64,000 bases of DNA from Dictyostelium discoideum (taxonomy: Eukaryota). The stretch spans positions 1,184,001 through 1,248,000 of the forward strand of contig CM000154.2 in the NCBI GenBank assembly GCA_000004695.1, read 5' to 3'. The notes below the pieces were generated by a model, which had not been told where the DNA came from, ran no database searches, and saw nothing but the letters and a program-made list of their open reading frames with translations. Position 1 is the first letter of the stretch. Every line of letters starts with the position of its first letter. Shown in pieces: positions 35,231 to 45,553 of this stretch. A program made the translations under genes and the position numbers.

Positions 35231-38200
35231 TTAATTATTTGAATCTTCACTACTACTATCACTAGAATCATCTAATGGTTTTGTTGGAGTAGAATCATTA
35301 TTTGAAAGTTGTTTTGGAGGAGTTGGTAATGGTTTTTGTTGTTGTAATTGTTTTGGAGATTGTTTTTGTTGTTGTAGTTGTTGTTGTTTTTGTTGTTGTT
35401 GTTGTTGAATTGGTGTTATTGGTCTTTTAACAAGGGTATATATAGTATTTCCTCTATTTAATTGAATATGTTGATTCTTTGAAGTTTCTGTGTAAACTGG
35501 TTCAACTGGAGTATGAGTTTTTAAGATTAGTTCAATTTCTTCTAATTTCTTTGTAATTTCAATAAAGGAAGGACGACAAGTTGGATCTTGAGCCCAACAG
35601 ATATTTAAAAGGCTATCATACTCTGGTAAATTATGAGATGGTAGTGATGGACGTACACCCTCGGTAATTAAACCTTCAACTTCAGACATAAAGGTAATAT
35701 TTGAAAAGAATCTTGTACGTGATAAAAGTTCAAATAGGATTACACCATATGCATAGACATCACTTTTATCCGAACATAATTCATTGTTTATTACCTCTGG
35801 AGCTAACCAAACTGGATTTTGAACCGAACGATTTGCAACGGTGGTTGAGAAGCCTGATAATGAGAAATCACAAAGATGGCATTCCATAGTTAATGAATCT
35901 TTACTTGAGAGTAGGATATTTGGACTCTTTAAATCACGATGAACCACTGATGGTCTACTATCATGAAGCGTTTGTAAAGATGCTGCGATACCTTTGGCAA
36001 TTTTAATTCTTAATTGCCAGTCTAATGGATTTTTGAGGTCATGAATGTAATCGTAAAGATTACCACCACTTTGGAATTCTGTGATAATTGCCAATGGTTC
36101 CAAACAAAAACCTTTAAGATCGAGGATATTGTCATGAATGAACGAAGAGAGACAAAAGATTTCACGACGATATTCAGCGAAAACCTTTGAAAAATCACTT
36201 CCAACCACATCGGTTTTTAAAAGCTTGATAGCGACATCCGATTGCCTCCATTTACCTTTGTAAACGGTTGCTGTACCACCTTCACCAATTGGATTTGGAT
36301 CGAGTTCAACCTCTTTGAAATCTATCAACTTGTGACGTAAATCGTTCATAGTTAAATCTGGTGCCAATTGATTCAATTTTATTGGGATCGAAGAATGAAT
36401 TGGACAACTTTGATAGGTTTTACCTTTGATTACAGATTCTTCGATTTGATTGAGACTAAAAAGATATTGTTCGGATTTTGGTAAAGTTTCAATACAATGA
36501 ATACATGAAATATAGATTGTATAGGCAAGTTGATTGTAGGATTCCAAAATTGATTCGAAAATTTGTAAGATATGTCTACACATTTTCGATGAGGAAATTT
36601 CAATTTTTGTATCACCAAGAACTTGAATCGATACTAAATCATCAGCCTCTAAAACAGAGATTGTTGAACTTCTACGGAATGGATTCTTTGCATTTGGAGA
36701 CATCGGGAATCTTCTAGCCACAGGGAATGATAGGTAACAATTCTCCAAGATAACTCCATTCTTCCAACAATGTTTAATTGAACAAAACATATACAATTGA
36801 CTCAATAATCTTGGGAAGAAACTTGATGGTATCTTTTTTTCAAATTGGAATATTCTACAAAGAGATCTTGGTTCACCAACATCTAAAAACATCTTATCCA
36901 TTGACATTGGTGGTTCATTCGGTAATTCATTTGGTAAGAAAATCACTTTTTCATTTAATAGTTTCAATTTATCATACTTTTGTTGTAATTGTAAATTCTT
37001 TAATGGTGATAATAAATTATTTAAACTTGAATTACTACCATGATGATGAGTTAAATTTGAATTACTACCATTACGAATTGGTGATAATGCTAAATTTGGG
37101 AATTTTAATGGACTTGAATTATTTGATCCACTTGAATTTAATGTATTAATATTACCACCATTACGAATTGAAATTGATCTTAATGATGGACTACCACTAA
37201 TTGATAATCTATTTAAATTTATACTAGTTTGTTGTTGTTGTTGGTGGTGGTGGTGTTGGTGTTGGTGTTGAGTTGATGATTGTTGTTGTTGTTGTTGTTG
37301 TTGATTAGAAATTGGTGATGGATAAACAAAGCCCCAAGAAGTTGGATCATAGAGTGTATCAATTTGATAAGCTATATTAAATTTCTTGGCCAATGTTAAT
37401 AAATATGGATATAATCTTGTTGGAATATCATTCCAAATACCTTCTAAATTACTCATTAATATAATATCCCTTTTTCTAATGGTTGGGTTAGCTACTTTAT
37501 TACTTCCACTACTTTCCTTATTAAAACTATCGTTCATACTACTATCTAATAGAATTGATGATGTATTTGGTTGAATTGGAATTGAAATGGTTGATAATGA
37601 AATATTTGATAATGATACAAGTGATGTAGGTGTTTGTAATGGTGTTGATGTTGATGTTGATGTTGATGTTGATGTTGATGTTGATGTTGATGTTGATGTT
37701 GATGTTGATGTTGATGATGAATTTGTGGATGTGGTAGTAATTTGTGATGGTATTGATGTATTGTTTAAATTTGTAGAATTTAAAGGTATTTGAGGTGGTG
37801 TACTTGGGGCTGATGATGATTGTTTTAAGGTTAACAATAAATTTAAAGTATTTGATAACCAAATTGGATCTAAAATTACCCAATCATGATCTTCGGACCA
37901 AAATAATAAGCCTAATTCAGTGAGTAATTCACAAGTATTTTTAGTTTCAATCTTATCTAATTTACACATTTCACCAATTGAAAAAAGTTCCTTCTTTGAA
38001 ATGAATGGAGTTTGTAATGTTTTAATATGTTTTTCAAATAATTTTTGACTACTTGAAACTTTTGTACCAAATGGTTTAAAATTTAAAAATACATTCTTAA
38101 TTTCTTCACGTAATTTTGGCATACCACCTAAAATGTTATTACTACTACTAATATTAATATTACTACCATTATTATTATTAAGGTTACTATTATTAAGGTT

Positions 38201-44200: not shown

Positions 44201-45553
44201 AAAGAATAATAATCTTTGTAAAAATTCTCTAGACTCTACTGATAATTTTTGTGCTAAATATTGAATATCCCAATAACCACCATATTGTGAGTTTACTAAA
44301 AAAAAAAAATATGATTAGTATAAAATTAATAAAAATCTATGAGAAATATATATAAATTTTTTTTTTTAAAAAAAAAAAAAAAAAAAAAAAAAAAAAAAAA
44401 AGATACATTACAAGCAGAAGTATGATTTTTAATAGCATTATATAATTCAACATTTAATAATTGGTCAGGTAAAGATGCAATGAATTCAACCAAGAGAGCT
44501 GCTACATCATAGGGATCTTGTGGATCTGGATAATAGAAATTGAAATCACCAGTTCTTTCAAATGAATTTCTCATAAATTTAACTTTTTCATTATTATATT
44601 TTCTAAAGAATAAATCTTCAACATGACCTAATAATAATAATTATAATTATATAATAATATTTTACTTTATATAAGAATATGAATTACAACAACAACAACC
44701 ACTACTACAAAATTATAAATTATAAATTTTACTTACAATGACCTTCTAAAAATGAAATTGATTTCTCTAATAAAATTGGAATTGATAAACCATTATCTTG
44801 ACGTTTGATTAAAGAATATAATGGTGTACCAAAATATTGAAAATCTGAAAACTGATTACTATTATAGAAATGAATAGGTGGTGATTGTTGATCAAATATT
44901 GGTAATGGTGTATTTGGCATTATAAATTCAAAGTTTGAAATATTTGATTTAATTGATGATGATGAACCATTCTTTTCAGTTTTTAAAGATTTAAATTTTA
45001 ATGAATTATATATATGTTTTAGTTTCGATGATTTTGGTGGTTTTGGTGTTTTCACTGTACCAGACGATGATGATGATGATGCTGCTGACATAGTTGGTGA
45101 TGTTGTTGAAGTTGATGTTATATCTGATGATTCACTAGTTTGTGAATAGAACGAGTCTGATCTAATTCCACCATTACCACCATTATTTGATGGATTATAG
45201 TCAATACTTCTTGTACTTGAAGATCTTAATGATGAATATGAAGTTGAATTTGTGGATGCTGCTAATCTATTTATATTTTCAGAATCACCTTCAACTGATG
45301 GAGTATTTAAGGAATTAGTATTATTATTATTATTATCACCTTCCATAAATTGTTGTTGTTGTTGTTGTTGCTCATCATCTTGCTGTTGTTGTAATTGTTG
45401 TAAAATTTTCTTTTCTTTATCTTTTTTACTTGTTCCAAATAAAGTTTTAAATTTTAATGTTCCACTTCTTGATTTTTTAGTTTCTTCTTTTTCACCAGTA
45501 TCTTCATTTGATCTTTTGGATTTTTTATCAAATAAATTAGCAATTGATGTCAT
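35231..45553 (-). CDS. Roco-family (LRRK-like) protein kinase, ~3366 aa. Domain order: RhoGAP-like, myotubularin-like pseudophosphatase, LRR, Roc-like (P-loop degenerate), COR, TKL kinase. Three exons: 45553..44737, 44627..44412, 44295..35231.
   Basis: Exon 1 encodes ...FGTPLYSLIKRQDNGLSIPILLEKSISFLEGH; exon 2 continues DPYDVAALLVEFIASLPDQLL (RhoGAP fold). Donors GTAAGT and GTAATG are both phase 1 into the giant exon, whose frame is open upstream of the listed Met. Exon lengths sum to 10098 nt = 3366 codons. Myotubularin-like region: WRVVEFLSRDTSTIYPKRILIP...IPIFSWS and [32 protein letters not shown], with SVLLKPPIDSPLH in place of the C(x)5R catalytic loop. LRRs follow. Roc-like region: NKLIIISDITNPQIK in place of GxxxxGK(T/S), then ...AVYCLVWALSESEE...FIVGLYNSD. 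COR: LLFWSEDHDWVILDPIWLSNTL. Kinase: GEGGTATVYKG, VAIKLL, HRDLKSPNILL, DFS, WLAPE. Resembles Dictyostelium Pats1/Roco9-type architectures; I did not assign a symbol. Confidence 0.85.
37625..37720. repeat. (GATGTT)n hexamer repeat, ~16 units. It encodes (ST)n in the Roco protein.
   Basis: Read directly from the sequence; it corresponds to TSTSTS... in the 2953-aa ORF. Confidence 0.9.
38220..38780. repeat. Long imperfect (ATT)n/(AAT)n trinucleotide tract encoding a poly-Asn run of ~150 residues inside the Roco CDS
   Basis: Read directly from the sequence. Similar coding tracts occur at 42040-42150, 4320-4370 and 5880-5990. Confidence 0.9.

Follow-up and report, generated by a model that had tools for sequence, protein, structure and literature searches.

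Degenerate Roc G motifs and a conserved DFS kinase motif in the Dictyostelium discoideum Roco protein Roco9

The minus strand of a 64,000-nucleotide (nt) stretch of Dictyostelium discoideum DNA (the window) carries, at positions 35231–45553, the gene for Roco9, a multidomain Roco kinase in which every G motif of the Roc domain is degenerate. The locus was identified as roco9 (DDB_G0288183, DDB0191512, UniProt Q6XHA7) from the agreement of its coordinates and of the numbering of phosphosite S1452 with dictyBase data. It comprises a 2,953-residue open reading frame (ORF; 35231–44092) with two short ORFs upstream of it and AT-rich stretches between them. Joining 45553–44737, 44627–44412 and 44295–35231 gives a single open frame that runs from ATG to stop and encodes 3,365 amino acids; the initial annotation had proposed one spliced protein of ∼3,366 residues with the same domain order, and all but that length is upheld. 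Exon 1 (44737–45553) encodes residues 1–272 plus one nucleotide and covers a low-complexity N-terminus and the start of the RhoGAP domain, exon 2 (44412–44627) encodes residues 273–344 with the RhoGAP finger region (R281 at 44602–44604), and exon 3 (35231–44295) encodes residues 345–3365 and the stop codon. Both introns are GT-AG and phase-compatible (intron 1, GTAAGT...TAG, 109 nt, 44628–44736; intron 2, GTAATG...TAG, 116 nt, 44296–44411). The 10,323-nt span equals the dictyBase interval chr5:1219231-1229553, which is also given for roco9 in the supplementary tables of Nichols et al. (2019) (chromosome 5, 1219231 to 1229553), and the published phosphosite S1452 (KLPSPISPRQSFI) is residue 1452 of the spliced model. 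Since the span and this numbering both fit, the RhoGAP exons are part of the annotated gene, and the exon junctions are collinear with orthologues that are single proteins. All coordinates below are window positions, on the minus strand unless marked otherwise; judged from the roco9 interval, the window would correspond to chr5:1184001-1248000.

The order of domains in Roco9 is RhoGAP, inactive myotubularin, leucine-rich repeats, Roc-like domain, COR and kinase. A Pfam scan recovered RhoGAP (PF00620, 46.7 bits, residues 259–379, encoded across all three exons), Myotub-related (PF06602, 176 bits), LRR_8 (120 bits in seven stretches; repeats at residues 1501–1880, 39689–40828), COR-A (PF16095, 42.4 bits; cut-off 35.3), COR-B (PF25497, 51.8 bits; cut-off 27) and a TKL-type kinase (PK_Tyr_Ser-Thr, 156.5 bits). 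The COR region (residues 2421–2995, 36344–38068), which carries Ser/Thr- and Gln-rich inserts, lies directly C-terminal of the Roc-like domain, the arrangement that defines the Roco family. The scan of the whole protein gave no Roc or Ras match, even at E≤1; the Roc domain was recovered by profile-profile alignment, which completes the domain set of the initial annotation. Neither the gene nor its name nor its architecture is new: Kerk and Moorhead (2010) described DDB0191512 as RhoGAP, inactive myotubularin, leucine-rich repeats, ROCO and kinase, and coined the name IMLRK, whose defining elements (inactive myotubularin, leucine-rich repeats, Roc-COR and kinase on one polypeptide) are all present in Roco9. 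Amoebozoan IMLRKs include Pats1 of D. discoideum and, in Entamoeba histolytica, nine proteins of which five have RhoGAP at the N-terminus; the Roc residues of the Entamoeba proteins are poorly conserved, and they 'presumably lack GTPase activity' (Kerk and Moorhead, 2010). By a simple entropy measure 34% of Roco9 is low-complexity. Such tracts lie inside the RhoGAP and myotubularin domains, the Roc loops and COR and are missing from orthologues 470–730 residues shorter, and they illustrate the tolerance of surface loops for D. discoideum repeat expansion.

An exhaustive HMMER search yielded three full-length Roco9 orthologues and one fragment with 59–64% identity, from Cavenderia fasciculata (XP_004352134.1), Acytostelium subglobosum (XP_012757034.1), EukProt (one protein) and Logan (the fragment). 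They have the same Pfam architecture and likewise no Pfam Roc match. The same search gave 29 relatives with canonical GQENVGKT, DFAG and THLD motifs, which were used as the canonical Roc reference set. No homologue was returned by word-indexed searches that used the Roc region as query, either raw or stripped of low-complexity sequence; repeat-rich Dictyostelium queries fail silently in such searches. D. discoideum Roco9 itself is missing from both large protein libraries searched, although it is in UniProt, and the nearest entry is 64% identical. Among the orthologues, identity is 50–66% in the RhoGAP domain, 46–58% in the myotubularin core, 43–62% in the Roc-like core, 60–73% in COR and 63–69% in the kinase.

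The Roc-like domain (residues 1901–2420, 38069–39628) is split by three low-complexity inserts. Alignment by hhalign to the 29 canonical Roc domains covers the whole domain with probabilities of 98.8–99.4%. After removal of low-complexity sequence, the Roc domain of LRRK2 aligns with the Roco9 region from β3 to α5 (E=0.0015), pairing KKNLTIFIRDLSQ with KRDLVLNVWDFAG in β3, VGLYNSD with VGTHLD at G4 and MPKLREEIKNVFLNFK with LAKLRKTIINESLNFK in α5, which in Roco9 sits beyond a 215-residue poly-Asn tract. Roc is the sole Pfam family matched by this region, with 13.7 bits against a cut-off of 27 and over profile positions 53–115 only. A profile built from the 29 canonical Rocs (hmmsearch/hmmalign) matches the Roco9 clade only from α2 onwards and leaves the N-terminal third unaligned; over this N-terminal part, MAFFT agrees with the profile-profile alignment. 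The idea that Roco9 has no Roc domain at all, raised by the empty Pfam scan, was overturned by the LRRK2 alignment, the custom Roc profile and hhalign. These alignments establish that the Roc-like domain and canonical Roc are truly homologous.

The domain is also predicted to keep a Ras-like fold. Modelled by AlphaFold2, the native region of D. discoideum has a core with predicted local distance difference test (pLDDT) scores of 80–96, the topology β1-α1-β2-β3-β4-α3-β5-α4-β6-α5 and disordered inserts. In a Foldseek search with this model all matches were small GTPases, including the Roc domains of LRRK2 and MbRoco2, and all were non-significant. With the model of the insert-free A. subglobosum orthologue (pLDDT 79.8), LRRK2 structures took the first eight places among the PDB matches (E=5.6e-7 to 7.6e-6), and Rho and Rab proteins came next.

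No [AG]x4GK[ST] motif is present in the Roco9 protein or in the six frames of the gene with 300 nt on each side, which excludes a P-loop hidden in another frame or in a missed exon; an intact GxxxxGKT close to the proposed site, named by the initial annotation as the finding that would overturn its proposal, is accordingly absent. The P-loop is represented by SDITNPQIKN (residues 1909–1918, 39575–39604), placed by motif scan, hhalign and MAFFT. Its first Gly is Ser, its second Gly is gone, the loop is two residues longer and the Ser/Thr is Asn (canonical KLMIVGQENVG-KTSLL versus KLVFISDQTIAMKNEII; D. discoideum sequence KLIIISDITNPQIKNEFI). The initial annotation had the P-loop replaced by SDITNPQIK (residues 1909–1917), which holds for the missing Walker A motif, with the refinement that the P-loop Lys survives as Lys1917. 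It had also placed a degenerate DxxG at RDLSQ (residues 2067–2071), in agreement with the G3 remnant DLSQ found here (residues 2068–2071, 39116–39127) by the LRRK2 Roc alignment, hhalign and MAFFT, in which Asp2068 is invariant and the Gly is Gln. In the MAFFT alignment of the Roco9 clade with 18–21 canonical Rocs the invariant columns are Lys1917, Asp2068 and the α3 Leu, L2128.

All five G motifs are thus degenerate in Roco9, and only the P-loop Lys and the G3 Asp persist. Throughout the clade both P-loop glycines, the P-loop Ser/Thr (replaced by Asn), the switch-I Thr and G5 are lost, and the G3 Gly is Gln, Ser, Ser or Asn. At G4, where THLD has become LYNS in D. discoideum, the Asp is Ser in this species and Glu in the orthologues, and G5 of the D. 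discoideum protein is replaced by poly-Asn. Three inserts that the orthologues lack interrupt the Roc loops of D. discoideum: 60 residues in switch I (KEKE/Gln-rich, after α1), 25 in switch II (Gly/Ser-rich) and 215 in the G5 loop (poly-Asn, before α5). The largest, a poly-Asn/Ser insert between β6 and α5 (residues 2186–2400, 38129–38773), has pLDDT below 50. R2134 is the retained equivalent of LRRK2 R1441. The orthologues have 'KLxxISDxxxxxKNEIIR', 'YxRDxx' and 'GxYNEK' in common in the Roc region, and because the loss of G motifs is found in Cavenderia, Acytostelium and two other sources, the degenerate state is, as judged from these deeply diverged dictyostelids, ancient and under constraint. 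Among other dictyostelid Roco proteins, a second lineage that carries a WD40 repeat annotation (Heterostelium album XP_020433412.1 and A. subglobosum XP_012752980.1) matches the full Roc profile and has the degenerate P-loop CF[VL]GDE[SN]PDK[LY]. With GDESPDK[LY] in this lineage and the degeneracy noted for the Entamoeba IMLRKs, G1 loss is not unique to Roco9. From the motifs we infer that the Roc domain of Roco9 is, in the words of the initial annotation, 'nucleotide-binding-dead', in spite of its retained Lys and Asp, and that it very probably no longer binds or cycles guanine nucleotide.

The kinase domain (residues 3005–3285, 35474–36316) has its closest structures in the Roco4 kinase (E=6e-42). 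A motif scan found VAIK at 3032, HRD at 3130, DFS at 3154 and APE at 3176, all as reported in the initial annotation, and K3035, E3056, D3132, N3137, D3154 and APE are intact in Roco9 and invariant among its orthologues. The glycine-rich loop reads GEGGTA, with Ala for the third Gly. The top structural match, 4f1m (E=6.3e-42), is the Roco4 G1179S mutant, with which Roco9 is identical in DFSLS, and DFS (residues 3154–3156, 35861–35869) is the natural equivalent of LRRK2 G2019S and Roco4 G1179S. This equivalence, arguably the most interesting point of the analysis, was not drawn in the initial annotation. Among Roco9 and its 150 closest relatives, DFS occurs in all five Roco9-clade sequences and in no others, and 197 of the 212 motifs read DFG. 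Roco4 G1179S is a model of LRRK2 G2019S in which a hydrogen bond between Ser1179 and Arg1077 of helix αC raises activity, a gain that is reversed in the G1179S/R1077A double mutant (PMC4017136). Arg1077-Glu1078 of Roco4 aligns with Arg3055-Glu3056 of Roco9 in αC (36161–36166), within an FRREIF sequence present in all orthologues. As DFG to DFS is activating in both Roco4 and LRRK2, Ser3156 is no argument for kinase inactivity.

The region at residues 521–1430 (41039–43768) comprises a PH-GRAM-like segment and a myotubularin-like phosphatase that matches the structures of MTMR2, MTMR1, MTMR6 and MTMR8 (E=3e-11 to 1.5e-8) and was classed as inactive by Kerk and Moorhead (2010). Active myotubularins have a C(x)5R loop, CSDGWDR, of which Roco9 has a remnant, VLLKPPIDSPLHT (residues 1201–1213, 41690–41728). 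In the alignment to MTMR2 (E=3e-11) Cys417 falls on Pro1206 and Arg423 on His1212, in line with the initial annotation, whose replacement string SVLLKPPIDSPLH lies at residues 1200–1212. Neither the catalytic-loop Cys nor the Arg is present in any orthologue in the alignment.

The RhoGAP core (residues 236–386, 44171–44848) is split by both introns and matches the PDB structures of DLC1 and p50RhoGAP (E=4.5e-7 to 5e-5). As the initial annotation had noted, its LK.fLReLP positions are substituted and its arginine finger aligns ambiguously. LLVEFIASLP aligns to ILKTFLRELP of p50RhoGAP with Val for Lys122 and Ala for Arg126; the DLC1 alignment places R281 on the finger, whereas the p50RhoGAP alignment places F280 on the Arg85 position and R281 one residue later. 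The finger column holds Lys, Asn/Ser and Lys in the orthologues, and hence selection does not maintain a catalytic Arg in the Roco9 clade. The Pfam match ends at profile position 120 of 148 in D. discoideum and spans positions 1–147 in the Cavenderia orthologue. A D. discoideum-specific low-complexity insert (residues 387–499) separates the core from what is, from the orthologue alignment, the probable last RhoGAP helix, LSELFTPLFVN (residues 500–520, 43769–43831, with the helix itself apparently at about 505–517), and in an alignment by eye LSELFTPLF has no Asn at the position expected for p50RhoGAP Asn194. The residues that support catalysis in p50RhoGAP (Lys122, Arg126 and, on this alignment by eye, Asn194) are therefore not retained.

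Ser1452 (40973–40975), in an SPR motif within the linker between the myotubularin domain and the leucine-rich repeats, is a chemoattractant-induced, ErkB-dependent phosphosite, and a second site at residue 100, in exon 1, was found by mass spectrometry (Nichols et al., 2019, supplementary tables). Compared by eye, the SPR site is SPK in orthologue P0001 and SPG in Cavenderia, and the segment is missing in Acytostelium; on this variation the regulatory site looks younger than the decay of the domains. After cAMP, Roco9 joins the cytoskeletal fraction during the first actin polymerisation phase.

The window is very AT-rich (15–36% GC), as is typical of Dictyostelium, and a tRNA scan of all 64,000 nt found none. 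Three tandem genes for integrin-beta-like Sib proteins lie at 10946–31365, with ORFs at 10946–16360, at 18242–22834 plus 22974–24017 (apparently one two-exon gene) and at 25765–31365; they match the Pfam families SIBA-E_N, Ig_SIBA-E 2nd and 3rd, vWA_SIBA-E and Ig_SibA with E down to 2e-111. On the plus strand, a 1,334-residue ORF (57193–61197) with Ge1_WD40 and EDC4_C encodes a homologue of enhancer of mRNA decapping 4 (Ge-1), and 55268–56089 presumably represents a single exon of a gene for a CCT subunit. Two minus-strand ORFs of 434 (723–2027) and 1,087 residues (4181–7444) match no Pfam family at E≤1e-5.

Taken together, sequence and models favour, with some reserve, a Roco9 in which a single live kinase, independent of a Roc GTP cycle, is surrounded by a scaffold of pseudo-enzyme domains. 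The myotubularin domain is certainly a pseudo-enzyme, the Roc domain very probably and the RhoGAP domain possibly, and conservation of the degenerate Roc domain at the level of the RhoGAP and myotubularin domains is consistent with a scaffold role. We propose that the Roc-like domain would act as a fixed structural partner of COR, akin to a Roc that never holds nucleotide. Nucleotide-free CtRoco is a dimer, and by analogy Roco9 may be a constitutive dimer. The kinase, as the sole live enzyme, would be held in an active-prone conformation by a Ser3156-Arg3055 hydrogen bond as in Roco4 G1179S and LRRK2 G2019S, and the DFS Ser may stand in for an input that normally comes from Roc-GTP. The myotubularin, PH-GRAM and RhoGAP domains could serve not as catalysts but as binding or localisation modules for phosphoinositides or membranes, for a Rac-family GTPase and for active myotubularins. 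Regulation would come from outside, through ErkB-dependent phosphorylation of S1452 and through the transient recruitment of Roco9 to the actin cytoskeleton that follows cAMP. A more specific proposal, which we offer tentatively and think rather more likely wrong than right, is that in the Roco9 clade Roc was fixed anciently as a nucleotide-free pseudo-GTPase with the 'G2019S' Ser and the αC Arg as a compensating activator, such that the kinase no longer answers to a GTP cycle and takes its inputs from outside, for example from ErkB phosphorylation and from recruitment to the cytoskeleton. If so, the Roco9 clade would be a natural version of a mutagenesis experiment of the LRRK2 field.

Several points weigh against a scaffold around a GTP-independent kinase, the first of which concern the Roc-like domain. 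Foldseek with the D. discoideum model gave no match at E≤0.001, a weakness that is due to disordered inserts making up 276 of the 559 residues modelled, and canonical Roc sequences were present in the input alignments of both AlphaFold2 models, which biases them toward a Roc fold. The invariance of Lys1917 and Asp2068 in the Roco9 clade and the canonical Rocs could reflect residual phosphate or nucleotide binding and not a structural salt bridge. Extended to the whole domain, this becomes a Roc that binds GTP, GDP or ATP through a non-canonical long P-loop with these two residues, leaving the kinase under G-domain regulation, and it gains from the β1-α1 segment, where the orthologues are 48–56% identical with 44% invariant columns, above the expectation for a free loop. 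However, such binding would have to manage with neither P-loop glycine in a loop one or two residues longer, with no switch-I Thr, G3 Gly, G4 Asp or G5, with inserts tolerated in D. discoideum in both switches (60 and 25 residues) and in the G5 loop (215 residues), and with Asn for the P-loop Ser/Thr. The dominant-negative Ras S17N substitution affects this same position. We therefore regard a nucleotide-binding Roc as improbable, though it is the alternative that we take most seriously.

Other objections concern the enzymes around the Roc domain. Loss of GTP binding lowers the kinase activity of LRRK2, according to a review, so a dead Roc could mean a weak Roco9 kinase, and no phenotype in development or chemotaxis has been reported for the roco9 knockout. 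The knockout would also suit a Roco9 that is catalytically silent throughout, its kinase being a pseudokinase owing to replacement of the DFG Gly, a residue that is near-universal in the relatives, and the altered third Gly of the glycine-rich loop points the same way. We nevertheless consider a silent kinase very unlikely, for the catalytic residues are present and invariant in the orthologues, the identical substitution raises activity in Roco4 and LRRK2, and the kinase is the most conserved domain of Roco9. At the opposite end of the protein, the Arg at or beside the RhoGAP finger, R281, may allow GTPase-activating activity in D. discoideum itself. A separate upstream gene for the RhoGAP exons, with the Roco protein beginning inside the 2,953-residue ORF, was suggested before the checks by the short upstream ORFs and AT-rich gaps, and its probability is now negligible: the introns are phase-compatible, the Pfam RhoGAP profile continues from position 1 to 120 over both exon junctions, the dictyBase span and residue numbering take in these exons, and orthologues from three other species have RhoGAP in the same polypeptide.

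What is new here is the homology to Roc of a domain with five degenerate G motifs that is conserved in the orthologues, the three low-complexity inserts that D. discoideum adds to its Roc loops, the clade-specific DFS and the non-conserved RhoGAP finger. A literature search pairing pseudoGTPase with Roco found no paper, and the searched literature naming Roco9 contains no remark on its G motifs or DFS; Bosgraaf & van Haastert (2003), van Egmond & van Haastert (2010) and Gilsbach (2012) lie outside that scope and may contain one. Control of the LRRK2 kinase by the Roc GTPase cycle is an unsettled problem linked to Parkinson's disease, and the point worth following is the combination of G1 loss with a conserved, clade-specific DFS: Roco9 and its orthologues are wild-type Roco proteins from which the G motifs are gone and in which the activating G2019S-type Ser is fixed together with its Arg partner. 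The Acytostelium and Cavenderia orthologues, being free of inserts, look tractable for expression, and with them it could be asked whether a nucleotide-less Roc-COR supports the kinase, whether the DFS Ser is required and what a Roc that is always empty looks like beside COR. The value of the analysis lies in this pointer to a specific and cheap comparative experiment, the gene and its architecture not being new, and in a clean example of several apparent pseudo-enzyme domains around one live kinase.

Compared with known systems, Roco9 resembles LRRK2 and Roco4 in its core of leucine-rich repeats, Roc, COR and kinase, with the Roco4 kinase as its closest structure and LRRK2 as its closest Roc fold. 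However, all five G motifs are present in LRRK2 and Roco4, whose kinase regulation needs GTP binding, whereas no G motif is intact in Roco9, which has no WD40 domain, carries RhoGAP and myotubularin modules instead, and has as its wild type the state that is pathogenic in LRRK2 (G2019S). The Entamoeba IMLRKs and Pats1 have its architecture, and poorly conserved Roc residues recur in Entamoeba; to what is general among IMLRKs, the Roco9 clade adds the conserved DFS and D. discoideum adds large low-complexity inserts in the Roc loops. PseudoGTPases such as the pseudo-G domains of p190RhoGAP and CENP-M keep the G fold, have lost the nucleotide-binding motifs and are used for structure or interaction. 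Unlike these, the putative pseudo-G domain of Roco9 lies within a Roc-COR tandem, which elsewhere is the switch that defines the family.

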